Source: Spirochaetales bacterium (lineage in GTDB: Bacteria; Spirochaetota; Spirochaetia; JABEVK01). From it: a stretch of 64,000 nucleotides of DNA. The translations under genes and the position numbers were made by a program. The stretch is taken from contig JBAXAI010000005.1 in NCBI GenBank assembly GCA_037142615.1, positions 32,001-96,000 of the forward strand, given 5' to 3'. The notes beneath the pieces are model-generated. The model saw only the letters and a list, made by a program, of their open reading frames with translations. It did not search any database and was not told where the DNA came from. Positions 22,007 through 55,993 of the stretch are shown here, piece by piece. How positions within the stretch are numbered: the first letter of the stretch is position 1; each line of letters starts with the position of its first letter.

Positions 22007-23617
22007 GTGATCAACCTCGGCCAAGTGAAAGTAACCTACGGCAGCCGCGTGCTGTTCCGCAACGCCGACCTGCTGGTGCGCCCCGGCGACAAAATCGGGC
22101 TGGTGGGCCCCAACGGCGCCGGAAAAACCACGGTGTTCCGCCTGATTACCGGCGAGGAGCACACCGACGAAGGCAGCGTGAGCATCGACCCCGGCGTGGT
22201 GGTGGGCTACTTCAGTCAGGACGTGGGCGAAATGTCGGGCCGCACGGTGCTGGCCGAGGTGCTCGCCGGCGCGGGCAAAGTGGCGGCCATCGGCGAGCAG
22301 TTGTCCGAGCTGGAACACCGTATGGGCGACGCCAGCAACCCCTTGAGCGATAAAGAGATGGATCTGTACGGCGAGTTGCAGCACGAGTTCATGACCCGCG
22401 ACGGTTACGAGCTCGAGAACCGCGCCGAAACCATCCTCGAAGGCTTGGGCGTGGGCAAAAGCCGCTGGCAGGACCCCGTGGAGACCTTTTCCGGCGGTTG
22501 GAAAATGCGCATCGCGCTGGCCCGCATTTTGTTGCTCAACCCCGACGCCCTGCTCATCGACGAACCCACCAACCACCTCGACCTCGAGACCATCGTGTGG
22601 CTCGAAGGCTGGCTCAAGGAGTTCCCCGGCGCGCTGGTGATGACCAGCCACGACCGCGAGTTCATGACCCGCATCTGCAAACGCACCGTCGAAGTGGCCA
22701 ACCAAAGCATCACCACGTACTCGGGCGACTACGACTTTTACCTGCGCGAACGAGAGATCCGCCGCGACAACCTGATCGCCGCCAAGAGCCGCCAGGACGC
22801 CATGCTCGCCAAGGAGAACGAGTTTATCGCCCGGTTCGCCGCCCGCGCCAGCCACGCCTCCTTGGTGCAAAGCCGGGTCAAGATGATCGAAAAAATCGAA
22901 CGCATCGAAGTTCCGCGCGAAACCAAGGTGATGAAAGTCAACTTCGGCGACATCAAGCGCTCGGGCGACATCGTGGTCGACATGAAGCACCTGGCAAAAG
23001 CCTGGGAGCTCCCGGCGGGGGGCACTCACCCCGTGTTCAGCGGCCTCAACGGCACCGTGGTGCGCACCAACAAAATCGCCGTCACCGGCGTCAACGGGGC
23101 GGGCAAGTCAACCCTGCTCAAGGTGATCACCGGCCAGACCGACCCCACCAGCGGCAGCTCAGCCCTCGGCGCCAGCGTGCAGATGGGCTACTTCAGCCAG
23201 TACTCCGGCGACCTGCTGCACAACGACTGGACCATTTTGGAAGAATTGCAGGACCGCTTGCCCCGCGAATCGGTAGGAAGCCTGAAGAACCTCATCGGTG
23301 CCTTCCAATTCAGTGGAGACGATGCCGACAAGCGCATCAGCGTGCTCTCCGGCGGCGAAAAGAGCCGCGTGATGCTCGCCTGCCTGCTGGCCAGCCCCGT
23401 CAACTTCCTGGTGCTCGACGAACCCACCAACCACCTCGACATCGCCAGCCGCGAGGTGCTTCTCGAGGCCCTGCAAGACTTTGAAGGCACCGTAATGATC
23501 GTCAGCCACGACCGGTACTTCCTGAAGCACCTGGCCAACCGCGTGTTCGAGATCGACCACGGCGCGCTGCGCGTGTACGAAGGCCGCTACGAGGAGTATC
23601 TGGAGAGCCGAGGGTAG
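22007..23617 (+). CDS. ABC-F family ATP-binding protein
   Basis: Two NBDs (GPNGAGKT, FSGGW, DEPTNHLD; GVNGAGKST, LSGGE) with no TM segments. Confidence 0.95.
   Translation: MINLGQVKVTYGSRVLFRNADLLVRPGDKIGLVGPNGAGKTTVFRLITGEEHTDEGSVSIDPGVVVGYFSQDVGEMSGRTVLAEVLAGAGKVAAIGEQLSELEHRMGDASNPLSDKEMDLYGELQHEFMTRDGYELENRAETILEGLGVGKSRWQDPVETFSGGWKMRIALARILLLNPDALLIDEPTNHLDLETIVWLEGWLKEFPGALVMTSHDREFMTRICKRTVEVANQSITTYSGDYDFYLREREIRRDNLIAAKSRQDAMLAKENEFIARFAARASHASLVQSRVKMIEKIERIEVPRETKVMKVNFGDIKRSGDIVVDMKHLAKAWELPAGGTHPVFSGLNGTVVRTNKIAVTGVNGAGKSTLLKVITGQTDPTSGSSALGASVQMGYFSQYSGDLLHNDWTILEELQDRLPRESVGSLKNLIGAFQFSGDDADKRISVLSGGEKSRVMLACLLASPVNFLVLDEPTNHLDIASREVLLEALQDFEGTVMIVSHDRYFLKHLANRVFEIDHGALRVYEGRYEEYLESRG
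23300..23614 (+). repeat. 315-bp direct repeat, copy 1 (3' end of ABC-F gene)
   Basis: Matches 24996-25310 with one mismatch seen (GAG vs GAA). Confidence 0.95.
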
Positions 23618-24684: not shown

Positions 24685-24998
24685 TCAGCCCAGTTTCTTC
24701 AACTTTTCCACCACAGCCATGGTCACCACGCTCACACGCGTCACTTTGCCCAGTCATGCGACAACTTCGTCGAGGTGGTCGACGGCGCTGCGGTGGCCGA
24801 GTTTGTACGTCCACGCTTCGGGTGGGAAGCCGGTGACGACCAGTTTGCTGGTGGGGGTTTCAAACTCCACCCGACCGGCGGCTTGGTCCACCCGCTGCAC
24901 GGTCTTGGCCTTGCTGACGTTGGGAATCAGCTCGTCGCTGGCAGGGTTGGGCGGTCTCGAAGCCGATGTGCGCGTCCATGAGCGTTTCTCCTGCCGCC
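24685..24998 (-). pseudogene. remnant of a type ISP restriction-modification enzyme C-terminus
   Basis: Manual translation: AGETLMDAHIGFETAQP /frameshift/ ...GFPPEAWTYKLGHRSAVD..EVVA*LGKVTRVSVVTMAVVEKL*. This resembles the LlaBIII-type C-terminal region. Confidence 0.7.
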
Positions 24999-25310
24999 TT
25001 CCAATTCAGTGGAGACGATGCCGACAAGCGCATCAGCGTGCTCTCCGGCGGCGAAAAGAGCCGCGTGATGCTCGCCTGCCTGCTGGCCAGCCCCGTCAAC
25101 TTCCTGGTGCTCGACGAACCCACCAACCACCTCGACATCGCCAGCCGCGAGGTGCTTCTCGAGGCCCTGCAAGACTTTGAAGGCACCGTAATGATCGTCA
25201 GCCACGACCGGTACTTCCTGAAGCACCTGGCCAACCGCGTGTTCGAGATCGACCACGGCGCGCTGCGCGTGTACGAAGGCCGCTACGAGGAATATCTGGA
25301 GAGCCGAGGG
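24996..25310 (+). repeat. 315-bp direct repeat, copy 2 (headless ABC-F 3' fragment)
   Basis: Near-identical to 23300-23614; continues in frame to a TGA ending at 25322. Confidence 0.95.
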
Positions 25311-34227: not shown

Positions 34228-35037
34228 ATGCGTAACTCCCAACTTTTCCGGGCAACGGCCCTGGTACTTCTGTTCTTGTTGGTTTCGTTCCTGTCAGCCC
34301 AGGAAGCCAAAGACGATTCGTCGAATACCATCGCGGCGTACGCCGTTGCGAAGGGTAAGCTGACCCTGGATTCCGAGTACCCCGTCACCGCGCCCGACAA
34401 AAAGGACCAAGCGACGATTTGGAAGGCCGTGACCACTTTGGTTCCACCGGCGCTGCTCAACCTCGTCACCCGGCTCGAGTTTTTCGAGGTTCCCGAAAGC
34501 GATGCCGCCACCGAAACCGATGGGTGGGCGTTACAGTCCGACGACAGCCAGAGCTTCACCCTCGGCCTGAGCATCACCAGTGCCAAGCTGGCATTTGTCG
34601 ACCGCGACGAGCAGGGACTCCCCGAGTTTGAGCAAACGATCATCCACGAGTTTGGCCATGTGCTCAGTTTCCGGGCCAGTCAGATGGACGAGAACGCCAC
34701 CGGCACGCTGCAGATCGAAGAGGGCACCCTCAAGTCCGACGGGTACCTCAACGTGTTCTACGAGAAGTTTTGGAAGAAGACCTACCCGAAGCACGGCACC
34801 GACGCCACCAGCGACGAAGAAGGCACCAAGTTGTACCTGACGGCACCAGCGTCTTTTGTCAGCGAGTACGCTGCCACCGGCCCCCTGGAAGACTTTGCTG
34901 AGTCGTTCGCGTGGTTTGTCACCAACGACAAGCCCAAGGGGAAAGACCTCAAGGACCAGAAGGTCCTTCAGTTCTACGCTTGGCCCGAACTCACCGGGTT
35001 CCGCGACCAATTCCGCAAGGGGCTCGCCAGCTTGTAG
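34228..35037 (+). CDS. secreted putative zinc metallopeptidase
   Basis: Signal peptide; IIHEFGH and FVSEYAAT..EDFAESF motifs. Confidence 0.75.
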   Translation: MRNSQLFRATALVLLFLLVSFLSAQEAKDDSSNTIAAYAVAKGKLTLDSEYPVTAPDKKDQATIWKAVTTLVPPALLNLVTRLEFFEVPESDAATETDGWALQSDDSQSFTLGLSITSAKLAFVDRDEQGLPEFEQTIIHEFGHVLSFRASQMDENATGTLQIEEGTLKSDGYLNVFYEKFWKKTYPKHGTDATSDEEGTKLYLTAPASFVSEYAATGPLEDFAESFAWFVTNDKPKGKDLKDQKVLQFYAWPELTGFRDQFRKGLASL

Positions 35038-35202: not shown

Positions 35203-37713
35203 ATGTCAACTATAAAAAGCACCACCAACCCCTACGGCCATTTTGACGATGCTGCCCGCGAATACGTCATCACTCGCCCCGACACGCCGCTGCCGTGGCT
35301 GAATTACCTGGGGCAGGACGAGTTTTTTGGCCTGTGCACCAACACCGCCGGTGGCTACACGTTCTGGAAAGACGCGAAACTCCGCCGCCTGACGCGCTAC
35401 CGCTACAACAACCAGCCCTACGACCTGGGCGGACGCTACCTGTACGTCAACGATGCCGGTTCGGTGTGGAATCCGGGCTGGAAGCCGGTGAAGGCCAAGG
35501 TGGACCGCTACGAGTGCCGCCACGGTATGGGCTACACGACCATCGTGAGCGAAAAGGACGGTCTGTCGGTGAGCCAGACGATGTTCGTCCCGCCGGGTGA
35601 AAACCTTGAGGTTTGGAAGGTGGTGGTCAAGAACACCGGCAAGACCGCCAAGACCCCGAAAATCTATTCGCTGCAAGAGTTTGCGTTTTTTGAAGCGCTC
35701 AACGACATGACCAACTACCAGCGCACCTATTCCATCGGCGAGGTGGAGGTCGAGGGCGGCGCCATTTACCACAAGACGGAGTACCGCGAGCGACGCAACC
35801 ATTACACGCTGTTTGGCTGCACGGGCAACGTGACCGGCTTCGATACCAGCCGCGACGCGTTTGTGGGGGTACACGAAGGCTTCCACGAAGCGAAAGTGCC
35901 CTTTGCCGGCAAGGCGGGCAACTCCATGGCCTTTGGCTGGAACCCCATCGGCAGCCATGAGGTGACGCTGAGCCTGAAGCCTGGCGAGTCGGTCGAGTAC
36001 GCCTACATTTTGGCCTACGTGGATCACGATTTGCCCGGCGCTGACGGCAAAAAGTTCGCCGGCGAGAAGTTCACCGCGCCGTTCGTGATCAACAAAGCCC
36101 TGGGCAAGGACGTGATGAAGAAGTACGCCACGCCGGGCGCGGTCGATGCGGCGCTGGGTCGCTTGAAAGCGTATTGGGACAACAACTTGGGCAAGTTCCA
36201 GGTGACCAGCCCCGACCCGCACGCCAACCGCATGGCCAACATCTGGAACCAGTACCAGTGCATGGCCACGTTCAACATGAGCCGCTCGGCCAGCATGTAC
36301 GAAACCGGCATCGGCCGCGGCATGGGCTTCCGCGACTCGAACCAGGACCTGCTGGGCTTCGTGCACATGATTCCCAGCCGAGCCCGCGAGCGCATCCTCG
36401 ACATCGCCGCCACGCAGCTCAGCGATGGCACCTGCTACCACCAGTACCAGCCGCTGACCAAGAAGGGCAACGCCGACATCGGGGGCGACTTCTACGACGA
36501 CCACCTGTGGCTGGTGCTGTCGGTGGTGAGCTACATCAAGGAGTCGGGCGACTACGGGATTCTCGAGGCCAGCTGCGGATATGCTGATCAGCCTATCACC
36601 CCGGGGGCCGCAGGATATGCGGCCCAGCCTAACTTGCTGCACCATTTGGAAACCAGCATCGCGTACACCATGAAAAAGCGTGGCCCCCACGGTCTGCCCC
36701 TCATCGGCCACGCCGACTGGAACGACTGCCTCAACCTCAACTGCTTCAGCACCGAACCCAACGAGAGCTTCCAGACGGCCGGCGACGTGAAAGACAGCAA
36801 GGCCGAGTCGGTGATGATCGCCGGTCTGTTTCTGTACGCCGCGCGCGACCTCGCCGAGCTCTACACTGCCCTCAAGCGCCCCGCCGATGCCGAGCGCATC
36901 TCGAAGCAGCGGCTCGAAATGCTGGCCACTCTCGAAAGCGTCGCCTGGGACGGGGAATGGTACACCCGCGCCTACGACGCGCAAGGTGGCGTCATAGGCA
37001 GCAAGTCGAACACCGAGGGCAAGATCTTCATCGAGAGCCAGGGCTGGGCCGTCCTTGGTGGCGCGGGGGCCAGCAATGGCCGTGCCCGCCAAGCGATGGA
37101 GAGTGTTCACAAGCATCTGTATACCAAGAATGGAGTTGTTCTTCAGCAGCCGGCGTACTCCACCTACGACAAGAACCTCGGCGAAGTGACGAGCTACCCG
37201 CCGGGGGTCAAGGAAAACGCCGGTATCTTCAGCCACAACAACACGTGGATCCACCTGGGCTGGTGCTTGCTGGGCGAAGGCGAACGGGCGCTGGAATACT
37301 ACCACTCCATCTGCCCCTCGAAGAAAGAAGAGCAAATCGACACCTACCGTTCCGAACCCTACGTGTACGCGCAGATGACGGCGGGCAAGGATGCCCCCTG
37401 TTTCGGCGAGGCCAAAAACAGCTGGCTGACGGGTACGGCGGCGTGGACGTTTGTGGTGGTCAGCCAGGGTCTCTTCGGTATCAAGCCGACCTTTGCCGGA
37501 CTTCAGGTTGATCCGTGCATTCCCAAGGCGTGGCCGGGCTTCGAGGTGACCCGCCAATTCCGCGGCGACACGTATGCCATCACGGTGAAGAACCCGAAGG
37601 GCGTCAGCAAGGGCGTGAAGTCGCTGTTGTTGGACGGGAGGTCTGTCCCCGGCAATGTGATCCCCGTGGTCGGCGACGGCAAAACCCACAAGGTCGAAAT
37701 CAACTTAGGCTGA
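35203..37713 (+). CDS. GH94 phosphorylase, cellobiose-phosphorylase-like
   Basis: TPLPWLNYLG, RRLTRYRYNN, GRGMGFRDSNQD, ADWNDCLNL and KENAGIFSHNN motifs. Confidence 0.92.
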   Translation: MSTIKSTTNPYGHFDDAAREYVITRPDTPLPWLNYLGQDEFFGLCTNTAGGYTFWKDAKLRRLTRYRYNNQPYDLGGRYLYVNDAGSVWNPGWKPVKAKVDRYECRHGMGYTTIVSEKDGLSVSQTMFVPPGENLEVWKVVVKNTGKTAKTPKIYSLQEFAFFEALNDMTNYQRTYSIGEVEVEGGAIYHKTEYRERRNHYTLFGCTGNVTGFDTSRDAFVGVHEGFHEAKVPFAGKAGNSMAFGWNPIGSHEVTLSLKPGESVEYAYILAYVDHDLPGADGKKFAGEKFTAPFVINKALGKDVMKKYATPGAVDAALGRLKAYWDNNLGKFQVTSPDPHANRMANIWNQYQCMATFNMSRSASMYETGIGRGMGFRDSNQDLLGFVHMIPSRARERILDIAATQLSDGTCYHQYQPLTKKGNADIGGDFYDDHLWLVLSVVSYIKESGDYGILEASCGYADQPITPGAAGYAAQPNLLHHLETSIAYTMKKRGPHGLPLIGHADWNDCLNLNCFSTEPNESFQTAGDVKDSKAESVMIAGLFLYAARDLAELYTALKRPADAERISKQRLEMLATLESVAWDGEWYTRAYDAQGGVIGSKSNTEGKIFIESQGWAVLGGAGASNGRARQAMESVHKHLYTKNGVVLQQPAYSTYDKNLGEVTSYPPGVKENAGIFSHNNTWIHLGWCLLGEGERALEYYHSICPSKKEEQIDTYRSEPYVYAQMTAGKDAPCFGEAKNSWLTGTAAWTFVVVSQGLFGIKPTFAGLQVDPCIPKAWPGFEVTRQFRGDTYAITVKNPKGVSKGVKSLLLDGRSVPGNVIPVVGDGKTHKVEINLG

Positions 37714-37736
37714 ACAGCCTATTCCCGGAGGAACCT

Positions 37737-40148
37737 ATGGCAAACTGCGGCTATTTTGACGACGCGAAACGCGAGTATGTGATCACTACGCCCTTCACGC
37801 CGGTGAAGTGGATCAACTATGTCGGCACGCTGGCCTTTGGTGGCATCGTGGACCACACGGGGGGAGCGCTGATCTGCCAGGGCGACCCGGCCAACAACCG
37901 GCTCACCAAGTACCTTCCGCAGCTGCCGGCCTCGGACTTCCGGGGAAGCACGATCTACGTGCGCGTGGGGACAGACCTCTGGAGTCCCTTCTATACGCCG
38001 GTTCTGGCGAAGCTCGACAAGTGGGAGTGCCGCGTGGGGCTCGGGTACAACACCTGGGTCGCCGAGCGCGGCGGGGTCCGGCTCACGGTGAAAGTCTACG
38101 TCGCGAGCGGCGACGCCGCGTCGCCCGGGACCTATGTGCAAGACGTCACCGTCGAGAACATTGCGGGTCGCCCGCTGACCATCGATGTGATTCCCGTGGT
38201 CGAGTTCACCCATTTCGACGCGCTCAAACAGCTCACCAACGCCGACTGGGTACCGCAAACCATGACGGTGAAGGCCCACCAATTGGCGGGCGTGACGGTG
38301 CTCGAGCAGTACGCCTTCATGAAGCGCGACCTCGCCGTCAATTGGTTTGCCACCACGCTTCCGGCGACCAGTTTCGACAGCGACCGCAAGGTCTTTTTGG
38401 GCCACAACGAGTACGGCAGCTGGGCGCACCCCGGCGCGCTCGACCAACCGCAACTGAACAACTCCACTGCGTTGCGGGGCGACAACATCGGTGCCTTGCA
38501 AGTGAGTCTCGGGACTCTTGCGCCCGGTTCTTCGAAGCGGTTCGCCGCCTTACTCGGCCAGACCGCCAAAATTGCGGATGCCGCGGCGGTCATCACCAAG
38601 CTGAGCAACCTCGCCCACCTGGACGCCAACCTGAAGACCCTGGCCGCCGGTTGGGCCACCTTCCTCGACGTGCTGACGGTGAAAACCCCCGACGCCGCGT
38701 TTGATTCCATGGTCAACGTGCACAACCCGCGCCAGTGCCACACCACCAAGAACTGGAGCCGCGACCTGTCGCTCTATCAGCTCGGCTTGGGCGGGCGCGG
38801 CATGGGCTACCGCGATTCCAGCCAGGACGTGCTCGGCGCCATGACGCTCATGCCCGGCGAGTGCCGCGTCTTGATCGAGAAAATCCTCTCGGTGCAGAAG
38901 CGCGAAGGCAACGCCATGCATCAGTTCTACCCGCTGACCATGGAAGCGTCGGTGGGCGACAGCCACGAGTACCCCGACCGCCCCCACTGGTACGGCGACG
39001 ACCACCTGTGGCCCGTTTTCAGCGTGGCCGCTTACCTGCGCGAAACCGGCGACCTAGCGTGGCTCGATAAGAGCCTGCCCTTCTACGAAAAGGACGCCGC
39101 CAAGAAGCCCTTCGAGGCGGCTTCGATTTACGAGCACCTGAAACGCGCCGTCGAGTTTACGCGCACTCACGTAGGCGCCCACGGCCTGCCCCTGCTGGGG
39201 TTCGCCGACTGGAACGACACCGTCAACCTGCCCACGGGCGCCGAAAGCCTGTTCATTGCCAACCAGTACGGCAAGGCCGTTCGCGACCTGCAGGAAATCG
39301 CCCGCGCGCGTGGCGACCACGCCTACGCCACCGAGTTGGAAGCGGCGTGGACCACCATGCGCGACGCCTTCGAGAAGGCCGGCTGGGACGGCGAGTGGTA
39401 CGTGCGCTACTTCAAGGCCGACGGTTCGCCCATCGGCAGCCACAACGCCGACAAGGGCAAAATCTGGATCAACAGCAACACGTGGGCCGTGCTGTCGGGG
39501 TTTGCCTCGGCTGACCGAGCGGCCACGGCCCTCGAATCGGTCAACAAGCACCTGAACACCAAGTACGGCCTCAAACTCTCGGCGCCGGGCTACAACGGCT
39601 TTGACCGCGACATCGGCGGCGTCACCACCTACCCGCCGGGAGCCAAAGAGAACGGCGGCATCTTTTTGCACACCAACCCGTGGGCCATGATCGCCGAAAC
39701 GCTGATGGGCAATGGCGACCGCGCCCACCAGTACTACACGGCAATCAACCCAGCCGCCAAAAACGACGTGATTGGGATGTACGAGGCCGAACCCTACTGC
39801 TACCCGCAGAACATTCTGGGCGACGAGCACCCGCAGTTCGGGCTCGCCCGCAACACGTGGCTTTCGGGCACCTCAAGCTGGACGTACGTGGCCAGCACGC
39901 AGTTCATTTTGGGTGTGAGGCCCGAGATCGAAGGCCTGCGCGTCGATCCGTGTATTCCCAAGGCGTGGCCGGGCTTCGAGGTGACGCGGCAGTTTCGGGG
40001 CGCGAGGTACCACATCACCGTGAAAAATCCTCGCGGTGTGAGCAAGGGCGTGGTGGCGATGACGTTGGATGGGAGGTCTGTCCCCGGCAACCTCATCCCC
40101 TGCGTGGACGATCGCCAACAGCACGTGGTCGAAATCACCCTCGGCTGA
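37737..40148 (+). CDS. GH94 glycoside phosphorylase (second, divergent paralog)
   Basis: GMGYRDSSQD, ADWNDTVNL and KENGGIFLHTNPW motifs; GGAGG SD. Confidence 0.9.
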   Translation: MANCGYFDDAKREYVITTPFTPVKWINYVGTLAFGGIVDHTGGALICQGDPANNRLTKYLPQLPASDFRGSTIYVRVGTDLWSPFYTPVLAKLDKWECRVGLGYNTWVAERGGVRLTVKVYVASGDAASPGTYVQDVTVENIAGRPLTIDVIPVVEFTHFDALKQLTNADWVPQTMTVKAHQLAGVTVLEQYAFMKRDLAVNWFATTLPATSFDSDRKVFLGHNEYGSWAHPGALDQPQLNNSTALRGDNIGALQVSLGTLAPGSSKRFAALLGQTAKIADAAAVITKLSNLAHLDANLKTLAAGWATFLDVLTVKTPDAAFDSMVNVHNPRQCHTTKNWSRDLSLYQLGLGGRGMGYRDSSQDVLGAMTLMPGECRVLIEKILSVQKREGNAMHQFYPLTMEASVGDSHEYPDRPHWYGDDHLWPVFSVAAYLRETGDLAWLDKSLPFYEKDAAKKPFEAASIYEHLKRAVEFTRTHVGAHGLPLLGFADWNDTVNLPTGAESLFIANQYGKAVRDLQEIARARGDHAYATELEAAWTTMRDAFEKAGWDGEWYVRYFKADGSPIGSHNADKGKIWINSNTWAVLSGFASADRAATALESVNKHLNTKYGLKLSAPGYNGFDRDIGGVTTYPPGAKENGGIFLHTNPWAMIAETLMGNGDRAHQYYTAINPAAKNDVIGMYEAEPYCYPQNILGDEHPQFGLARNTWLSGTSSWTYVASTQFILGVRPEIEGLRVDPCIPKAWPGFEVTRQFRGARYHITVKNPRGVSKGVVAMTLDGRSVPGNLIPCVDDRQQHVVEITLG

Positions 40149-40209
40149 GGTTAACAAGGCCACCCAGTGGACAATAGGGGCCAAATCCCCTAGAATCGGG
40201 GCAAAACCG

Positions 40210-41523
40210 ATGAAAAAAGGCACCTTCCAACTCCCTGGGGTTCCCAGCGCTGAGGCCCCCTTCGTGCTCTCGGCGCTCGGTGAGTCCAACTTCGGCCGCC
40301 TCCGGTTCGCTAGCGGGATCGGTGCCACCGTCGATCTGGTTCACGTCGTACTATTTGCCCTGGGCCTTGGGACCGGGACCGCGATCGAGGACCTGTGGCG
40401 GTGGGGCATCATCGTCTGCCACAGTGTTCTCTGCCTGTTATTTGTCTCGGTCGGCGTGTTTTCGTGGCGGCGCAAGAGCAGGCCAAGCTCGAACCAACAG
40501 GCGGCGACACTCTTCGTCCACTCGTTCTACTTCGTCTTTCTCTTGGCCGGTGTGGGCATCGCGCTCGTCGATCAGCTTGTCGCTACGGCAGTGACGCCCT
40601 ACATCGTGGTGAGTTTTCTGGTGCCCCTCGTCGTGCAGCTCCCGCCCCGGGGACCCATCGTCTACCACACGGTGTCGTTTCTCGTCTTCGCCGGATTGCT
40701 GGGTTTGGTGCAGACAGACCACAACGTCCTGCTTTCCAACCAGGTACAGGGGTTCACCGCGCTGGGCGTGGGGATCTTCCTCAACGTGCTGTTGTGGCGC
40801 GTGAATCGAAACCGCATCCTGCAGGATAAGAAGATCGAGCGGCAGACTCAGGAACTCCTGGAAATCAACACTACCAAGGACAAGCTCTTTTCCATCATCG
40901 CCCACGACCTGCGTGGCCCGCTGGGCGGGTTCATGGCACTGCTGGAAATGCTCAAAGAGAAAGAGAGTCAGGCCTCGAAGCAGGAATACGACGAGGCGCT
41001 GGAGCTGCTCCGTCACTCCTCGGTGGCTGTGTTCGGCCTGCTCGAGAACCTGCTGAAGTGGTCCAAAGTGCAGCAGAATCTCATCGTGGTACGGCCCGTT
41101 GAGGTCGTTTTGGGCCCGTTCCTCGAGTCGGTGTGGCGGCCAATGGAGGGGGCTGTGGCGCTCAGTCGCCTGCAGGTCAACATCTCGTGCGCACCGGATT
41201 TGACCTGCCGGGTCGACCCCGAAGTTCTGGCGACCATCCTGCGGAACCTGCTTTCGAACGCGGTCCAATTCACCCCGCCTGGCGGCCGAATCGACCTCGA
41301 AGCAAGAGTCGAGGGCACTACGCCCGCGTTGGTCCTTTTCGAATGCCGCGACTCCGGGGTGGGAATGACGCCCTCGGAGCAAGAAGACCTGTTCAAAGTG
41401 GGACTCAAGTCGGGCCTGGGTCTCACCCTCAGCCGGGACTTTGCGCGGATGCTCGGTGCAGAGCTTCGCGTGGAAAGCACCCCAGGTGTCGGCACGCGCT
41501 TCTGGTTTGCCATTCCGAAATGA
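40210..41523 (+). CDS. membrane sensor histidine kinase
   Basis: TM region; IIAHDLRGP, NLLSNAVQFT, DSGVGM and GLGL motifs. Confidence 0.88.
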   Translation: MKKGTFQLPGVPSAEAPFVLSALGESNFGRLRFASGIGATVDLVHVVLFALGLGTGTAIEDLWRWGIIVCHSVLCLLFVSVGVFSWRRKSRPSSNQQAATLFVHSFYFVFLLAGVGIALVDQLVATAVTPYIVVSFLVPLVVQLPPRGPIVYHTVSFLVFAGLLGLVQTDHNVLLSNQVQGFTALGVGIFLNVLLWRVNRNRILQDKKIERQTQELLEINTTKDKLFSIIAHDLRGPLGGFMALLEMLKEKESQASKQEYDEALELLRHSSVAVFGLLENLLKWSKVQQNLIVVRPVEVVLGPFLESVWRPMEGAVALSRLQVNISCAPDLTCRVDPEVLATILRNLLSNAVQFTPPGGRIDLEARVEGTTPALVLFECRDSGVGMTPSEQEDLFKVGLKSGLGLTLSRDFARMLGAELRVESTPGVGTRFWFAIPK

Positions 41524-42416
41524 CCATCCTCGATGTCGTTTTTCTCTACCAGTTGAAAGAGGACCAAATGGTGCGCTGGCATTCGCGGCGCCACGCGCAC
41601 CCGGCCGGCCAGTACGAGTTTCACTACTTCGTGGGAGGCAAAGGGTCGTTCCAGCAGGGAGGGTTTTCGCATCCGCTGCAGGGTGGCCAACTGTTCCTCT
41701 CGTGTCCCGGTGAGTTTCACGAAATCCGCGTCACCGATCTGGCCCACCCGATCAGCTATTATGCCCTGCTCTTTCAGGTCAGCCCCGACGACGAGCTGGC
41801 CCCGGTACTGGCCGAGCCCGCGTTCCGGGCCTCGTTCCCGGTGAAAATCGGCACCAATCAGCGGCTGTTTTTCGAAGACGCGAAGGCCAAGTTCGCGCTG
41901 CATGACAACCCTTCGCGGGGGCGGGCGGCCAGTTTGCGCCTCGAGGCCTTTGTGCACGACTTGCGCGCGGATATGGCCGCGCCCGCTGAACTGGTCCCCT
42001 CGGGGCCGTTCAACCTGCACGTCGAACAGGCGCTGGGTCTGCTGCAGGCGGGCGTGTTCCAAAACCTTTCGCTGGCCGACATCTGCGGGCCGCTCCAGCT
42101 AACCGAGGAGCACCTCATCCGGCTCTTCCGCAAGCACCTTAACTTAACTCCCATGAAGTACTTGCAAGTGCTCAAGCTCGAGACCTCGATGTCGCTGCTG
42201 CTCAATACCAGCCTGTCGGTCAAAGAGATCGCGTACAAGCTCGGCTACCCCAACCAGTTCCTCTTCAGCCGCAATTTTCGGGCCCATACGGGGGTACCAC
42301 CCACCGAATACAAGCGCCTGTACTTTGCCGGGAATACCGACAAGTATCACCTGAAGATCCTCGACACTAGCGAGCCGAGATCAATTTCCGATATATCAGG
42401 GCAAACAAGGGCATAA
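41520..42416 (+). CDS. AraC-family regulator
   Basis: Cupin N-domain and a double HTH (VKEIAYKLGY...FSRNFR). Confidence 0.92.
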   Translation: MTILDVVFLYQLKEDQMVRWHSRRHAHPAGQYEFHYFVGGKGSFQQGGFSHPLQGGQLFLSCPGEFHEIRVTDLAHPISYYALLFQVSPDDELAPVLAEPAFRASFPVKIGTNQRLFFEDAKAKFALHDNPSRGRAASLRLEAFVHDLRADMAAPAELVPSGPFNLHVEQALGLLQAGVFQNLSLADICGPLQLTEEHLIRLFRKHLNLTPMKYLQVLKLETSMSLLLNTSLSVKEIAYKLGYPNQFLFSRNFRAHTGVPPTEYKRLYFAGNTDKYHLKILDTSEPRSISDISGQTRA

Positions 42417-42459
42417 GGACTGCACCCCCGAAATCGGCGCGAGGGTATAGGCTGAGGGC

Positions 42460-44043
42460 ATGTCGCAACCTACCGTTCTGGGTCTGGACGCCAGCACCCA
42501 AAGCCTGACCGCCGTACTTGTCGATCGCGCCACCGGCCGTGTGGTGGCTGAACACAGCCTTTCCTACCCCGCAGAAGTCTGGATGTCGGTGGAACACGCT
42601 GGCCAGGCTGACCAGTCGGCTGCCGTCTTCGTCCGGGCCCTGGGCCCAGTGCTGGCCGCGCTGCGCGACAAGGGAGCCCCGCTTGCCAGCGTAGAGCGCA
42701 TCGGGGTCAGCGCCCAGCAGCACGGGTGCGCCTTTTTGGCAACCGACGCCGCAAGTCAGCTCTCGACCCTTCGACAGCCGGAAGCCTCGCCGAAAGTGCT
42801 CGACGCTCTCGCGGAATCCCTGTTCAGCCACCCGCGTTGCCCCATTTGGATGACCAGCGATACCGAACCCTACGCCGCCGCCCTGCGCCGCGCTGCGGGT
42901 GGCTCGGCCGCGATGATCTCGCTTACCGGGTCCGACAGCCCTCTCCGGTTCACCGGCGCGATGATCCGCAAGTTCGGCGAGGAACACCCCCACCGCTACG
43001 AAAAGACCAGCCGGGTGGCCCTGCTCAGCCAGTTGTTCCCCATGCTGCTCACCGGCTCGGTCGAGGTTCCCGTGGACTGGGGAAACGGCAGCGGTACCAG
43101 CCTGATGGACTACCAGAAGAAGGTGTGGAGCCCCGCGCTCCTCGAGGCCTGTGCGCACGGCCTCCCCGGCGGAACGGCGGCCCTGACGGCCAAGCTGGGG
43201 GGTCTCGTGGCCCCGCTGACGGTGGCGGGCACCATCGCGCCGTGGTTCGTGCGGCAGTTCGGCTTCTCTCCGGCCTGCGAAGTGCTCATCGGCTCGGGCG
43301 ACAACCCGCAGTCCAAAGTTCCTGTGGCGGGCGACCTGCTGAGCCTGGGCACCAGCTTCGTGCTGATGGCCGAGCAGGGCCAGGCTTCGCCGCTCGACGC
43401 TCGGGGCTGGGGCAACGCCATGTACGATGGCCGTGGCCAGGCCTTTGTGTTCGGTTGCCGCACCAACGGCGCGCTGGTGTGGGACCAACTACGCCAGGCC
43501 CACAACGCCGACTTTGCCCGAGCGGAAGCCGCGCTCAACGCCAACGCCCCCGGCTCGGTGCTCGCCCTGCACCAGCCGCTTCACGAAAGCTTTCCTCCTT
43601 CCCCGGCGATTACCTGCATGGTCGCCGGGGAATCTTTTGACCGCCAATGGGCCGCTGCGGTCGATTCGTCGCTGGGTTTGCTGTTCCTGGGCAGCCGTCC
43701 CTGGTTGAAGGGCAAAACCGACGCCCTTTCGGTGACCGGAGGTCCGTCGGGCAGCGCCGCCCTGGTGCGCCGAATCGCGGCCTTCGCCAACCGCCCGGTG
43801 CGCGTCACCGGGGCCGCCGGTGCTGCGCTTGGGGCCGCCGCAGGTGCGCATTTGGCCGATCCTGTCGGCGACCGGCTGCGATCTGACCAACTTGCCCTTG
43901 TCGGCTGGGTGCCGACCTCGCAAGAAGTGCAACCCCGCCCCGAAGACGTCGCAGCCTTGCACGCCCCCGGCGGCTACCTCGATCAACTCCGCGCACTATT
44001 TGAAGCCAAAACGGGCATCGACCCGACAGGAGAACGACTATGA
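42460..44043 (+). CDS. xylB: xylulokinase (eukaryote-like FGGY clade)
   Basis: [25 protein letters not shown] and LLSLGTS motifs; translationally coupled to xylA. Confidence 0.8.
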
Positions 44044-45380
44044 AAAGCATCTGGACCGGCAAACAGACCTATTTCCCCACGGTAAAGGCCGTCGCCTACG
44101 AAGGCCCCGCCACCGACAATCCCCTCGCCTTCCGGTTTTACAAGGCCGACCAAAAGGTCGCCGGCAAGACCATGGAAGAGCACTTCCGCTTCGCGGTGGC
44201 CTACTGGCACACCTTCACCAACGAAGGCTCCGACCCCTTCGGCCCCGGCACCCGCGTCTTCCCCTGGAACGATAACAAGGACCCGCTCGAGGCCGCACAC
44301 GACAAGGCCGACGCCGCCTTCGAGTTTGCCAGCAAGCTCGGCACGCCCTTTTACTGCTTTCACGATGTCGACGCCTCGCCCGATGCCGACGACCCCGCCG
44401 TGTACGAGAAGAACCTGAAGCAAGTGACCAAGTGGCTCAAGGAACGCCAGGACGCCACCGGCGTGAAGTTGTTGTGGAACACCGCCAACCTGTTCAGCCA
44501 TCCCCGCTTCCGCAATGGAGCCGCCACCAACCCCGACTTCCGCGTCGTCACCCGGGGCGCTTTCCAGGTGAGGGCCTGCCTCGAGGCCAACGTCGAGCTT
44601 GGCGGCAGCAACTACGTATTCTGGGGCGGCCGCGAAGGCTACAGCAGTCTGTGGAACACCAACATGAAGCGCGAGCAGGAGCACATGGCGCGCTTTTTGA
44701 CGCTGGCGCGCGACTACGGCCGCAGCATCGGCTTCAAGGGCGTGTACCTCATCGAGCCCAAGCCCATGGAACCGTCGAAGCACCAGTACGACTTCGACTC
44801 GGCCACCGTCATCGGCTTTTTGCGAGCCAACGGCCTCGACAAGGATTTCAAGCTCAACATCGAAGCCAACCACGCTACCCTGGCCGGACACGAGTTTGCT
44901 CACGACCTGCAAGTGGCCGCCGACGCCGGGCTCTTGGGCAGCATTGACGCCAACCGAGGCGACCCGCAGAACGGCTGGGACACCGACCAATTCCCCAGCG
45001 ACCTGTACGAGACCACCAAGGCCATGCTGGTCACGCTGGCAGCCGGCGGCATCGGTCAGGGCGGGTTCAACTTCGACGCCAAGGTTCGCCGCAGCAGTAC
45101 CGACCTCACCGACCTGTTCGAAGCCCACATTGCCGGCATGGACGCGTTTGCCGTGGGCCTCATCACCGCCGACCGCATCCGCAGCCAGGGCAAACTTGGC
45201 AAGTTCGTGGCCGATCGCTACGCCAGCTTCGACAGCGGTGCCGGTGCCGACTTCGAAAAGGGCAAGCTCGACTTCAAGGCCCTGGCCGCGCTGGCACCCT
45301 CGAACCAGAACCTCCACCTTGCCAGCGGCAGGGAAGAGTGGATCGAGGCGCTGATCAACCAGGCGCTGTTGGCGAAGTAA
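44040..45380 (+). CDS. xylA: xylose isomerase (class II)
   Basis: [38 protein letters not shown] and GWDTDQF motifs. Confidence 0.97.
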
Positions 45381-45484
45381 GTTGTTTGCGGGCTAAAGGT
45401 CCAAGACCTCGACGAGTCGGCAATCCGCGATTGGGCAATGCGTGGAGTTTTCGCGTGGCGAAAACTCCGAGCGTTCAGGTCGGG

Positions 45485-46261
45485 TTAGTCTTGGCGGGAA
45501 CTCGCAAGCGTGTCGACTGTCGCAAGGGGAAGTCCGGTCAGTTCGGCAACTTTGGCTGTGTTCATGCCCTCGGCAAGGAGCACCTTCGCGACTTCAACTT
45601 TCCCCTCTAGCTTTCCCTTGGTGAAGCCTCGGGCTTCACCTTCACGGAAACCCTCGCCCTTGTAGCTCGCGATATCGTGGAGAGCCATGGAACGGCGGAT
45701 CTCGTTATAGACTTCAGGTGCGATACTCATGTAGGCCTCCATCCGTTGGTATGCTGCCCCTATCATCGCTCTTTTCAACTGCGTGGCAGGGTCTGGTGAC
45801 TTTAGCAGTTTAGGAAGTTCTACGAAAAGGAACCCCAGATGAGCGGTGTGAGGCAGATGGCAATGATGCAGCCAGGGCCCTCTCTTGGAGATTTCGTACT
45901 CGAGAAAGTTGAGTGAAATGACGGGCTGAAGCTTGTCGTAGTCGTCACCAGCGGGCAATTGCCGGGCAAAAAGCCTGGCCCAGTAGAACAAAGCGCGCTC
46001 AAAGTACGCGGGCTTCCGTGTCGTCTGAACTTCAACGTTGACGATGCGACCGGTTTCATCTTCGGCCAGAATGTCGACCAAAGCCAGCTTCTCGCCGTGT
46101 TCCGGCGGCAGGTCACGGGGCTGGAGCTGGAGTTTGTGGACTAACGGAGGGCCGACGGCCTCGAAATGAGCGTTGACCAGGCTTTCCAGAAGTGGGAGGC
46201 CTTCGGGTTCACCGAAGACGTGCAAAAAGACAGAATCGTGAGTAAGCGGGGAATACGGCAT
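45485..46261 (-). CDS. Rpn-family PD-(D/E)XK nuclease (possibly internally deleted)
   Basis: DSVFLHVFG, VDILAEDETGRIVNVEVQ, ERALFYWAR and ELPK motifs; EG-repeat and HTH tail. Confidence 0.85.
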   Translation of the reverse strand: MPYSPLTHDSVFLHVFGEPEGLPLLESLVNAHFEAVGPPLVHKLQLQPRDLPPEHGEKLALVDILAEDETGRIVNVEVQTTRKPAYFERALFYWARLFARQLPAGDDYDKLQPVISLNFLEYEISKRGPWLHHCHLPHTAHLGFLFVELPKLLKSPDPATQLKRAMIGAAYQRMEAYMSIAPEVYNEIRRSMALHDIASYKGEGFREGEARGFTKGKLEGKVEVAKVLLAEGMNTAKVAELTGLPLATVDTLASSRQD

Positions 46262-46355
46262 TTAGTACCTCAAGGTACCAGACGGGGGGGGACGCAACGC
46301 TTACGCACGACACCTTCGGCTTCCGCCTGAAGTCCCCCGGTGGGATCAGTTTGCA

Positions 46356-46751
46356 TCAGAACAACTCAATCGCGTCGGGGGGCGAGGCAATGGTCAAACC
46401 CTTGATTGGTGAAACCGAAAGCAAGTCGGCATCGCCACTGATCAAAAGTACGGCGCCGGAAGCGACCGCCGCTTGGACGAACATGTCATCGTCGAGGATC
46501 TCAACCCAAAATGCTGCTGCGTTCCAATCGTGGAGGAGACCCTTTCGGTCGTCGAGGGAAAGGTAACGGTCAAACTTGGGCCGGCGGATCCTTTCCTCGA
46601 GTTCCGCAAAAGTTTCGCGGGAAAAAACGGGAACACAGTTCTGCAGCACAAGCTGGACCACTTTGGCGGGACTGCCGTTTGCAGATAGGGCCGCGCTGAT
46701 CCAAACATTCGTATCGACAACGACCCGCGAGTTCCTGAGTGACCCAGCCAT
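46356..46751 (-). CDS. PIN-domain putative toxin
   Basis: RVVVDTNVWISA, DDDMFVQAA and LISGDADLL motifs. Confidence 0.85.
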   Translation of the reverse strand: MAGSLRNSRVVVDTNVWISAALSANGSPAKVVQLVLQNCVPVFSRETFAELEERIRRPKFDRYLSLDDRKGLLHDWNAAAFWVEILDDDMFVQAAVASGAVLLISGDADLLSVSPIKGLTIASPPDAIELF

Positions 46752-46756
46752 CGGGT

Positions 46757-47008
46757 TCAGCTTTCGTCGGCCAGAAGCCGGTCGAGTTCGGTCTCGGTCA
46801 GGCCAGCCGCCGAAGCTTTCCGGGCCGTTTCCTGGAGCGTCGTTGCCAGCCGCGCCGCATAGAAGGTCCTCATGTCCTCATAGTCCTGGGCGCTGACCAG
46901 AACCCCAATCACACGGTCGTGTTTGAGAACCTGAACGGGTTCGCGCTGGGCTCGATCGAGGAACTCTCCGAACCGGGTCTTGGCCTCATTGGCGGTGACG
47001 GTTTGCAT
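46757..47008 (-). CDS. Phd/YefM-family antitoxin
   Basis: MQTVTANEAKTRFGEFLDRAQREPV. Confidence 0.9.
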   Translation of the reverse strand: MQTVTANEAKTRFGEFLDRAQREPVQVLKHDRVIGVLVSAQDYEDMRTFYAARLATTLQETARKASAAGLTETELDRLLADES

Positions 47009-47150
47009 TCGCACAATATGGTCGAATCGCGCGAAATAGTCAACTCGGAGGCCGGGGAGCTGGTGGACGATTCTGGCACTTCTCAAGGTGTACACAACTG
47101 GGTCTCTGTACGTTCTGTTTCTCATGGGCGGACTGCCGGCGAAGTAAGCC

Positions 47151-48263
47151 CTAGAGGGATTGCAGACGTTGGAGGTACTCCTGCCACGGGAGTATCTCCA
47201 CCCCATTTTCGAGCCTGCGGGGCCGAGCTTCGCGGCCAACGATCCAGCGGTGCCTCAACGGCAGATCCTCGGCAAGGGCCTGCAAGCCTTTGGTGTCCGA
47301 AAGGTGAATGGACCCCGACTTGAACTCCACCGCCGTGTCTTCGTTGATCAGGAGATCCACCTCGAGACCGCTCGAAGAACGCCAGTAATTCACGCGATCT
47401 ATGCCCTTTCCATACGACTGGGCGGCCAAAGTCTCTAGAACCAGAAAGTGTTCGAACGCCTTGCCGAACTCCGCGGTCTTTTCTGAAAGTCGCCGCCGCA
47501 GCAGGATGTTGGCTACGCCCGTGTCGAAGTAGTAAAACTTGGGCGTCATCACCGAGCGGCGTTTCACCGTCCTGGTGAACGGCTCCAGCAAGTGCCCCAA
47601 AAGCGTGTCTACCAGAATCTGAAAGTACTCGGCCACCGTTTTGGCCGAGACGCCGGTGTCGCGGGCGATGGTGGCATAGCTCAGTTGCTCGCCGTTCGAA
47701 AGTGCCGCCAACTCCAAAAAGCGGCTGAAGGCCGGAATGTTGCGTACCAAGCCTTCCGCCAACACTTCTTCTTTGAGGTACTCGCCGCAATAGTCTTTGA
47801 GCTCGTCCCACGGATCGGAGCCAAGGACCATCGGAGGCAACCCACCGAACTGCAGGCGTTCCAGCAGGTCGAAACCCGGGATTTCTGCAAACGTCAGCGG
47901 GTGCAGGTGAACTGTCTTGAGCCGTCCTGCCAGATTGGTAGCCCCCGAGCGCCGGAGCTTGCGCGCGCTGGAACCGGTGAGCAGAAAGGTGTTGCCGGTA
48001 TTCTCGATCAGCCAGTGAACTTCGGATAGTAGTTCGGGAACCTTTTGTACCTCGTCGATGACAATCAACTTGCCGGTGTTACCGAACTGCTCCCGAAGCA
48101 AGGCGGGACGGGAGCGGTAGTCGAAGAACACATCGGTCTTGAGCAGGTCGATCAGCTCGTAGTGTATCTCGAGGCCTCTGATCAAGGTGCTCTTGCCTAC
48201 GCGACGTGGCCCCAAGAGGAGGTGGTTCTTCTTCAAGTCCAACTCAAGACTTCGTTTCAGCAT
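47151..48263 (-). CDS. AAA_14 / DUF4143 ATP-binding protein
   Basis: GPRRVGKST, IDEVQK, LTGSSARKL, KFYYFDTG and EVDL motifs; paralog of 26937-28115. Confidence 0.9.
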   Translation of the reverse strand: MLKRSLELDLKKNHLLLGPRRVGKSTLIRGLEIHYELIDLLKTDVFFDYRSRPALLREQFGNTGKLIVIDEVQKVPELLSEVHWLIENTGNTFLLTGSSARKLRRSGATNLAGRLKTVHLHPLTFAEIPGFDLLERLQFGGLPPMVLGSDPWDELKDYCGEYLKEEVLAEGLVRNIPAFSRFLELAALSNGEQLSYATIARDTGVSAKTVAEYFQILVDTLLGHLLEPFTRTVKRRSVMTPKFYYFDTGVANILLRRRLSEKTAEFGKAFEHFLVLETLAAQSYGKGIDRVNYWRSSSGLEVDLLINEDTAVEFKSGSIHLSDTKGLQALAEDLPLRHRWIVGREARPRRLENGVEILPWQEYLQRLQSL

Positions 48264-48337
48264 GACTACTTCCGAATTACAGGATATTCGGAAGTATCGG
48301 TGCCGTCAATCCAGCGGGCGCCTGCCCCTCGCTCCGG

Positions 48338-48780
48338 CCTCGACGAATCGGCAAATCACGAATGGGCAATGCGTGGAGTTTTCGCGTGGTGATACCTCGG
48401 GCTTCACCGATGGCTTCGCCCTCACGGAAACCCTCGCCCTTGTAGCTCGCGATATCGTGGAGGACCATCGAACGGCGGATCTCGCTATAAACTTCAGGTG
48501 CAATCCTCATGTAGGCCTCCATCCGTTGGTGAGCGGCGACGCCGCTCTGCGGCTTACGCCCTCAGGTTTCGGGCACGCCCAAAAACTGGGCACCCCGCTT
48601 TGTCGAGCGAAGGAGCTTGGGCAATTCGCGGGGCTGAAGCTGCGGTTTGTGGACTAGTGGCAGGCCCTCGGGTTCACCGAAGACGTGCAGAAAGACAGAA
48701 CCGAGGGAATCATGACCGGGGGGACGCAACGCCTACGCACGACACCTTCGTTTTACGCCTGAAGTCACCCGGTGGAATCA
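48338..48780 (-). pseudogene. abridged duplicate of the Rpn locus at 45407-46348, including both flanks
   Basis: Shares the 3' flank (GGGCAATGCGTGGAGTTTTCGCGTGG), the 5' flank (GGGGGACGCAACGC..TACGCACGACACCTTCG), VF.HVFGEPEGLP and MEAYM.IAPEVY.EIRRSM.LHDIASYKGEGFREGEA, with large deletions. Confidence 0.9.
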
Positions 48781-48972
48781 TTCCGGTGGCGGTTTCAGAT
48801 GACTTCGGACCAGCTCGTTAAGCAACTGCGAGGGGTCCTTTCCGGCCCTTTGGGCTTGTTGCTGCAAAAGAGCCGCGAGATCGGCTTCGAGGAAAACAGC
48901 CAGTCGATTTTCCGAGCGAGGATAGTACCTCTTGCCGACGACACCCTTGGTGAAATCATAGTGACTCTTCAT
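48778..48972 (-). CDS. BrnA/CopG-like antitoxin
   Basis: MKSHYDFTKG N-terminus; overlaps the toxin 3' end. Confidence 0.75.
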   Translation of the reverse strand: MKSHYDFTKGVVGKRYYPRSENRLAVFLEADLAALLQQQAQRAGKDPSQLLNELVRSHLKPPPE

Positions 48973-49264
48973 ACCGACTCCTCGTACTGAAGTATACCAC
49001 CTGTTCGCGGCGGTTAGCGCGGCGGGCAGAGATGATTCGCGTCTTTTCCCCTTCGAACGTCATTCGCAGGGTGTGGACGACCACAAGAACCGGCGAAATC
49101 CCCGAAAGCCCGAGAGAGGCCTCTCGCTCCTCTTCGGACGAGTGTTTGTCGTCGGAAACGGTGATGACAAACGGATCCTCGAAGACACATTCTGCCTGTT
49201 GGAAGGTTACTTTGTGTTTCCGATAGTTTTGAGCAGCCTTCGCATCGTCCCACTCGAATAGCAT
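48956..49264 (-). CDS. BrnT-family toxin
   Basis: FEWDDAKAAQNYRKHKVTF, EERE, LVVVHT and RIISARRA motifs. Confidence 0.9.
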   Translation of the reverse strand: MLFEWDDAKAAQNYRKHKVTFQQAECVFEDPFVITVSDDKHSSEEEREASLGLSGISPVLVVVHTLRMTFEGEKTRIISARRANRREQVVYFSTRSRYEESL

Positions 49265-49369
49265 CGCTCCCGTCCTCCAAGCAAAGAGACGGGGTATTTG
49301 GTGGTCTTGCTTCAGTAAAGCCGGAGTTTTTTCGGAATTTGGTGTCTCCGCTTGGAGGCAATAAAGCCA

Positions 49370-49773
49370 GAAGCTGGTGGCAGGGAAACAGCCCTCCGGT
49401 GCAACGGTTAGGTCTGCCCGAACAGGATTGTTGTCAACATACGTGAAAACCCGCAAAAATTCGCGAAGGTTGGGAATAATCCAGGAGAAATACCGTCCAC
49501 CCCAAAAATGGCCCCAAAGACCGTTGGTTTTGTTGTAGCGGATAGCGAACGTCTGCAGAATCCATTTCATGATAGTGGCAAGCGTCGATGCCCGTCCCGG
49601 CCGGATGATCAGGTGAAAGTGGTTGCCCGGCGTAAAACGAACTTTTCGTGGGCTCTGGCGAGCACATCGAGGAACATCTGCTTCACCACGTGTTCCAACA
49701 GGAGTTTTTGGTGGTTGGCACGCGCGGTCACGTGGTGCTTCGCGCCATCATGGACGATTCGGGCTCTTCTCAT
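49370..49773 (-). pseudogene. REP-associated tyrosine transposase (RAYT, Y1 HUH), frameshifted
   Basis: MRRARIVHDGAKHHVTARAN /frameshift near 49630/ NHFHLII...MKWILQTFAIRYNK..GHFWGGRYFS...YVDNNPVRA. 3' end is approximate. Confidence 0.85.
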
Positions 49774-49839
49774 ACCGTACATAACGTGGTGTCTGGGCGT
49801 TCTGCTTCTCATCGGAGGTCTGTCCCCCGGTGGATTCAC

Positions 49840-54889: not shown

Positions 54890-55852
<963 letters not shown>

Positions 55853-55993
55853 ACGTCGAGGGTAATTCTTGGGGCTTTGGGGGTCAAGTGGGATCTTTGG
55901 CATGGCACACTCCTACCCTGCTTAACAGGGAATAGGTGCGTTCTGCTTGCGCCAGAGGCTTGGGGAGGGCGGTTTTCTTCCGATAATCAGCCT

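Follow-up and report, generated by a model that had tools for sequence, protein, structure and literature searches.

How does a short word that stands just upstream of a transposase gene come to recur inside protein-coding genes? The question is raised by a 64,000-nt stretch of a Spirochaetales bacterium genome (assembly GCA_037142615.1, contig JBAXAI010000005.1, positions 32,001 to 96,000; hereafter the window, with coordinates counted from its first letter). In it the pseudogene of a REP-associated tyrosine transposase (RAYT; REP, repetitive extragenic palindrome) is preceded by a 13-mer, GGGGACAGACCTC, that has four copies in the window, one upstream of the RAYT and three inside two genes of glycoside hydrolase family 94 (GH94). 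Our analysis confirmed that this repeated RAYT-adjacent word, present also in coding genes, is real. Sequence comparisons further suggest, with a probability that we put at roughly 0.55, that the 13-mer is the recognition or recombination site of a hairpin-independent RAYT that seeds solitary copies chromosome-wide, genes included. The features concerned are:

35203 to 37713, + strand: GH94 cellobiose-phosphorylase-like gene 1 (GH94-1), a motif host
37737 to 40148, + strand: GH94 gene 2 (GH94-2), a motif host
37637 to 37650, - strand: intragenic motif in the GH94-1 tail; the + strand codes for G-R-S-V-P, and GRSVP is found in 0 of 119 homologues
37967 to 37979, + strand: intragenic motif in GH94-2; codes for G-T-D-L and coincides with a four-residue deletion
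40072 to 40085, - strand: intragenic motif in the GH94-2 tail; codes for GRSVP at a position homologous to 37637, possibly as a gene-conversion copy
49814 to 49828, - strand: RAYT-upstream motif GGGGGACAGACCTCC, on the RAYT coding strand 40 nt before the start codon; fits GGGGWSAS
49394 to 49773, - strand: RAYT/TnpA-REP (Y1 HUH) pseudogene; HFH and YVDNNP kept, 3' end lost

A RAYT-adjacent word inside two GH94 genes

Read on the + strand, the 14-mer GGAGGTCTGTCCCC stands at 37637-37650, 40072-40085 and 49814-49827, and the motif reading itself, GGGGACAGACCTC, stands at 37967-37979; the initial annotation had these positions right, as it did the reading frames (GRSVP twice, GTDL once). Among the 13-mers of the window only this one reaches four dispersed copies, and its Markov expectation of 0.0008-0.004 (orders 0-5; about 0.001) agrees with the earlier premise that a given 13-mer is rare in 64 kb. 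The three coding copies were reproduced in 0 of 200 synonymous-codon shuffles and 0 of 200 codon-order shuffles. A look-elsewhere analysis with order-5 Markov simulations revealed some 13-mer with four copies in 3 of 60 runs and with at least three copies in 43 of 60, and because simulated windows also yield repeated 13-mers, the window alone is suggestive and not decisive. It persuades solely for the reason that base composition disfavours the word and that the position upstream of the RAYT preselected it.

Other candidate copies did not survive scrutiny. The one at 10-20 (GGGGACAGTCC), which had been counted as a variant, was dropped, as it shares just an 8-mer expected about once per window and codes for GIGLSPP at a hydrolase-like site. 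Also rejected were candidates at 34950 (one mismatch, coding for KGKDL) and at 50417, where three mismatches accompany the EGLTP of an FGE domain, residues that we take to be conserved.

Judged from protein alignments, the GH94 coding copies are derived relative to orthologues. Across the GTDL site, each of the 117 homologues that align there (119 listed) has a loop longer than that of GH94-2 by four residues or more, and the closest homologue (88%) reads YVKVTDGATTDLWS where the window protein reads YVRVGTDLWS. Within the final 60 residues, none of the 119 homologues of GH94-1 and none of the 119 of GH94-2 has GRSVP, and the columns that it occupies are variable, with a consensus near DGKxVxGN. 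These results support the proposals that the motif alters protein sequence and that its coding copies sit in tolerant positions; orthologues encoding the same residues, an observation named beforehand as contrary to the idea, were looked for, and the orthologues do not encode them. The codons are unusual within their genes too, the sole AGG and sole TCT codons of GH94-1 and the sole ACA codon of GH94-2 all lying in the motif. In 6 of the 10 closest orthologues the GTDL site is near-cognate, with 11-12 of 13 positions attainable (rows P0177 and P0179 of this orthologue comparison were mis-anchored).

The two tails are 65-72% alike, against 46-60% for the rest of the paralogues, and share identical runs of 32 and 20 nt, so that the two tail copies of the motif may be one event, as the initial annotation had allowed. 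The GH94 pair might also have been imported from a motif-rich donor, an explanation for the window only that is compatible with any mechanism considered here and that would account for all three coding copies lying in 2.4 kb with none in the other roughly 50 kb of coding DNA. We regard import as quite improbable, given that the GH94 copies match the local RAYT-upstream dialect exactly, that GC content is even across the window (0.59-0.65), and that the motif codons are found nowhere, or almost nowhere, else in the GH94 genes.

The motif in other RAYT loci

A genome scan for RAYT relatives returned at least 80 loci at 30-49% identity, the closest clade not being among them, and the counts and L numbers below are drawn from these at least 80 loci listed. 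Of 53 RAYT loci scored, 32 have the pattern GGG[AT]C[AG]G, oriented like the gene, in the 130 nt that precede it: 12 of the 20 spirochaete loci (background 0.075 per such stretch) and 20 of the 33 others (background 0.038); termite-gut copies use AGG[AT]CAGACCT, which falls outside this pattern. A GGGGWSAS motif near the RAYT gene is known for TIRYTs (PMC3733652) and for subclass 2.1 (PMC6006769). The window's upstream copy GGGGACAG, 40 nt from the gene, fits it, so the RAYT-motif link as such is already known, a point that the initial annotation had missed.

The motif varies between loci in what we call dialects, which follow the clades of the RAYT tree. Four close relatives that group with the window RAYT (support 95/86) spell the window dialect in their open reading frame (ORF) extensions, as GQTP, GTDL, GQTS and GDRP, and a GGAG clade (support 93/94) carries WYDRFKS where the others are WGxRFFS-like, a region linked to guide recognition in E. 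coli TnpA-REP (PMC6006769). The upstream pattern and the clade-wise dialects together bear out the claim that the motif is RAYT-linked.

Evaluating dispersal into coding DNA, we counted 93 coding copies in 13 spirochaete loci, chosen from 80 after motifs had been seen, against 2.8 expected from synonymous shuffling and 1.1 from codon-order shuffling, an excess of about 30-fold in sequence up to 10 kb from a RAYT with our own, crude gene calls; the enrichment over a codon-aware null that had been foreseen is hence seen in related RAYT loci. De novo ranking of 9-mers placed the motif as a top word in most spirochaete loci. Dialects are locus-specific, one base apart and near-exclusive between loci, such that L010 holds 20 copies of GGGACAGAG and none of five other dialects while L031 holds 17 of GGGACGGAG and one copy of another dialect. 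Copies occur in all six frames, with 108 of 177 inside called ORFs, and across 10 loci their density is 3.2 per kb in the 0.3 kb next to the RAYT and 0.6-0.9 per kb beyond that, out to 10 kb, with a strand ratio of 81:45 (upstream clusters included). Over 7 loci the exact 9-mer was found 95 times against 0.9 expected, and its one-mismatch variants 31 times against about 26, an all-or-none pattern.

Of 59 motif-bearing ORFs one that contains Ns was omitted; Pfam families were assigned to 49 of the other 58, among them Ffh, GpsA, NDK, FabD, FabF, AccC, ClpB and DnaE2. Peptide sites able to carry the motif are almost saturated, 18 of 18 being occupied in L010 (1.6 compatible sites expected) and 41 of 49 in six loci (8.3 expected), with 0 of 21 in control loci; the window was left out of this tally, its ORF calls there being partly wrong. 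NDK has GQSY where a solved homologue reads GKPF, and in DnaE2 GTEL replaces GAEL/GVEL, a conserved Arg is lost and a 27-residue insert carries two motifs. At conserved sites the motif fits residues already there, as in GGTEA of FabF, and the GpsA site matches conserved residues. A PDB sequence search with the L010 radical-SAM protein gave no match, and an all-versus-all comparison of the fetched loci yielded mostly orthologue pairs of 30-65%, too distant for DNA-level junctions. As a separate observation, L002:641-725, within an ORF, repeats a 24-nt unit in tandem, each unit with a single motif, and this gives GDRGDTLS peptide repeats.

Chance recurrence joined to gene conversion between the GH94 tails could draw on the long runs that the tails share and on the frequency with which simulations reach three or even four copies of some 13-mer. 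It is nonetheless very improbable: the word is disfavoured (expectation about 0.001), agrees with a RAYT motif already published and coincides with a unique deletion, and related loci show the same behaviour on a massive scale. We consider chance ruled out for the most part by the related-locus excess and the site occupancy.

The motif also marks element ends. In termite-gut spirochaete bins, which are metagenome bins and may be mixtures, it stands in direct orientation at both ends, at the left one in 12 of 14 anchored copies and at the right one in 17 of 19, and the shared sequence or homology breaks off at the motif; arrays of 18-24 nt repeats carry one motif per unit. Multicopy RAYT units came from at least 19 loci in one bin and one from another, at 80-95% nucleotide identity. 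The RAYTs of L016-L045 and L051, from such bins, are IS-like, with at least 19 loci in one bin, at least 7 in another and direct motifs at their borders, and multicopy RAYTs of this kind run counter to the view that RAYTs never copy themselves.

It is conceivable from these units that the solitary copies are what remains, as footprints, of a mobile RAYT element or miniature inverted-repeat transposable element that inserted and was then excised or deleted between direct-repeat motifs. The motif-bounded insert of DnaE2 fits this as well, as does a duplication rate reported for Group 1 as the highest among true RAYT groups (10.1101/119735). Many copies, however, are in-register substitutions of unchanged length in the essential Ffh, FabF, AccC, GpsA and NDK, where footprints are unlikely because the interim insertion should be lethal, and footprints are expected to decay, yet one-mismatch copies are at background. 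We hold footprints to be a decidedly unlikely source of the solitary copies.

The RAYT pseudogene and its neighbourhood

The RAYT starts with an ATG at 49773 (- strand), 40 nt beyond the end of the motif copy at 49814. The gene carries an internal deletion and a frameshift near 49629-49641, and its homology stops near 49394, from which point the frame continues into a BrnT gene. It is 82-83% identical to intact PF01797 proteins (P0002 among them is named Spirochaetales), the nearest named relative being from a Spirochaetales bacterium at 82%. Residues H59, H61, Y119, N123 and P124 are invariant across 21 RAYT relatives, and the NF047646 profile scored 77.9 bits for P0002, 89.8 for P0018 and 90.5 for the L010 RAYT (cutoff 80). 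The predicted structure of the intact P0002 (pLDDT 90) has 4ER8 as its top fold match (TM 0.70, E 3.6e-9) and shows no extra domain; close relatives are mostly 157-176 aa with PF01797 only. A PDB sequence search with the RAYT gave no match, the IS200 model scored RAYTs at just 21-25 bits against a cutoff of 55, and plasmid and phage records held distant RAYTs only (23 and 1 records, under 40% identity).

We found no conserved hairpin around the motif in seven folds (z from -2.4 to +0.3) and on that ground rejected a REP hairpin model, in keeping with the initial description of the motif as lacking one; an Rfam search gave no match.

A second, degenerate RAYT remnant lies nearby:

47064 to 47135, - strand: RAYT 5' stub, 78% identical to 49751-49822; upstream motif decayed; followed by a Phd/PIN pair

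The stub belongs to a duplicated module (45400-47135 and 48338-49822) of a truncated RAYT 5' end, a toxin-antitoxin pair and an Rpn/PD-(D/E)XK gene. The pairs differ, Phd/PIN in one copy and BrnT with a probable BrnA in the other, and the Rpn/PD-(D/E)XK gene is intact in one copy and internally deleted in the other; the RAYT 3' end has apparently given way to different toxin-antitoxin cassettes. At the RAYT deletion junction (49629-49641, - strand) 13 nt are an exact inverted copy of 48747-48759 (+ strand), 880 nt away, a stretch at which the paralogue near 46315 reads differently, and these 13 nt are possibly a templated patch. Elsewhere, 39 nt at 55910-55948 are 72% similar to the RAYT upstream and start region and lie directly upstream of an Rpn-like gene (54890-55903), a 12-nt tandem array of 10 copies in register (54971-55141) lies in the C-terminal coding part of a second intact Rpn-like gene, and an ABC-F ATPase gene tail is duplicated exactly over 300 nt (23300-23599 and 24996-25295).

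Candidate mechanism and comparison with known systems

HUH enzymes nick single-stranded DNA (ssDNA), remain bound through a tyrosine to the downstream 5' end and join that end to another 3'-OH. E. coli TnpA-REP does so in vitro, cleaving and recombining ssDNA with low cut-site specificity, a tyrosine-linked 5' end and strand transfer, and it has been modelled to amplify tandem units (PMC3333891). On our preferred reading a RAYT of the TIRYT type (TnpA-REP subclass 2.1), with a hairpin-free site, would cut transient ssDNA at, or just 5' of, the motif. When two true sites are joined, the outcome would be tandem arrays, deletions or a RAYT unit that moves; when a motif-bearing end is instead joined into a near-cognate site and the junction is resolved by microhomology on the 3' side, the motif would take the place of about 10-25 nt. 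Purifying selection would retain just the in-frame, tolerated patches, repeated action would erase decayed copies, and the window would represent a sparse, probably recent instance next to a RAYT that has since broken. In this sense the RAYT may itself physically write the motif into genes. More tentatively, and at a little under even odds, a spirochaete RAYT clade may be a sequence-writing enzyme that uses ssDNA strand transfer to convert near-matching chromosomal sites to its own 9-13 nt word, with a density of up to one per kb and in essential genes too. The proteome would then carry a peptide signature specific to the enzyme, and recombination sites would form a network across the genome.

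Selection offers another route, in which the word is a host signal (akin to HIP1, an uptake sequence or Chi) that arose by ordinary mutation and was fixed as useful, for example as the binding site of a domesticated RAYT or other protein in chromosome organisation, recombination or DNA uptake. A density near 1 per kb that stays flat out to 10 kb, full occupancy of compatible sites and decayed copies that are not in excess would all suit such a signal, and HIP1 itself has been argued to be maintained by selection (PMC5861425). We nevertheless think a host signal unlikely, as three to five changes at once, or a deletion with a substitution, are hard to reach by point mutation without enriched intermediates. 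The motif also stands at element ends and in tandem units, lacks the strict strand polarity of Chi or KOPS (81:45), and has in the window three coding copies per 64 kb, too few for a structural signal.

Several observations weigh against writing by a RAYT. In the window the three coding copies cluster within 2.4 kb and may be just two events, the RAYT is a pseudogene, near-cognate support at the GH94 tail site is weak, and the GH94 comparisons come from homologous proteins. Among the related loci, those giving the coding excess were picked with motifs in view, every locus sampled was chosen for holding a RAYT, and dialect may track host phylogeny instead of the enzyme. The absence of decayed copies is equally expected under strong selection, as argued for HIP1. 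Non-spirochaete loci mostly keep the upstream motif, yet their own 10-mer recurs in just 2 of 20, and because most of them do not disperse it, a RAYT is not sufficient for dispersal. In Uabimicrobium its own variant is dispersed, chiefly in intergenic arrays. The Planctomycetota loci L047, L048, L072 and L052 were also seen to carry other dialects (GTGTCAGACTC, GCCAGACTC, TGGTGTCAG and GGGACATTC) in tandem clusters that lie between genes close to RAYTs.

No function has been assigned to the largest RAYT group, which is described as being without REPs. If writing by a RAYT is true, a transposase-derived enzyme would recode host proteins at scale; this would be a mutational process not recognised before and could be the function of that group. 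It would likewise provide HIP1-like iterated words with an enzyme-driven, testable origin and constitute a compact HUH writer in which a few residues change the specificity by single bases, and GTEL, ALSL, SSVP and similar peptides of spirochaete proteins may then be mutational signatures and not adaptations.

Turning to known systems, the window RAYT family has the HUH motif, the catalytic Y---NP, the profiles (PF01797, NF047646) and the fold (4ER8) of class 2 RAYTs. Its closest counterpart is the TIRYT/TIRtron (Di Nocera 2013, PMC3733652), which equals TnpA-Y1 subclass 2.1 (Quentin 2018, PMC6006769) and RAYT Group 1 (Bertels 2017, 10.1101/119735). Shared with TIRYTs are a Y1 HUH protein with NH[YF]H and Y---NP, no GTAG REP, GGGGWSAS at a set distance upstream and, in some genomes, moderately abundant repeat families. 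TIRYT repeats are described as long terminal inverted repeats in dimers or clusters (PMC3733652, PMC6006769), whereas the copies here are solitary 9-13-mers, with a density within genes of up to about 1 per kb, and change the proteins. The long inverted repeats on both sides that define a TIRtron are missing from the window, where the RAYT is without its 3' end and no inverted partner is present, and mostly no inverted pair surrounds the gene in other loci, with direct motifs in multicopy genomes; a downstream inverted core within 350 nt of the match end, a range perhaps short for long proteins, was found in 5 of 20 spirochaete and 7 of 33 other loci. Unlike subclass 2.1, the short spirochaete proteins (160-175 aa) have no C-terminal helix-turn-helix or DnaA-like extension. 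The enzyme-motif pairing is already known; pervasive protein-altering intragenic copies of TIRYT motifs were not found reported in the literature searched, a search that missed most subscription journals.

E. coli TnpA-REP (4ER8) resembles this RAYT in fold (TM 0.70), catalytic motifs, small repeats dispersed in trans and tandem amplification, and REPs do occur occasionally in frame within genes (PMC3733652). In contrast to REPs and REPINs, the motif has neither a GTAG/GTGG foot nor a conserved hairpin, most copies are not extragenic (108 of 177 in ORFs), and in several loci more copies are coding than intergenic; intragenic REPs, which we group here with the Rickettsia palindromic elements, add whole 20-40 bp palindromes or dimers, whereas the motif mostly replaces in register or with a short deletion. 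TnpA-REP has been proposed to diversify prochlorosin genes, with causality noted as not established (10.1101/2020.03.09.984088). Kinship with IS200/IS605 lies in the Y1 chemistry and in the multicopy units with short-motif ends of termite-gut spirochaetes; Y---NP in place of Y---Q, the low IS200 scores and the lack of visible subterminal hairpins set it apart.

DNA uptake sequences and Chi are also short exact iterated words, and the motif here is not tied to uptake machinery. With HIP1 it shares a short exact word, about one per gene, in coding DNA and several frames, and the strong coding over-representation of such words (93 versus 2.8 in the 13 loci). Its main dialects differ from HIP1 in being non-palindromic and 9-13 nt long and in going with a HUH transposase and not a methyltransferase, although no search for methyltransferases was made, and the motif also marks recombination junctions; for HIP1, too, a model of repair-driven creation exists (PMC4390886). 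Overall, the motif behaves like a RAYT target repeat and resembles HIP1 in distribution, and the enzyme is a class 2 RAYT with a TIRYT motif.

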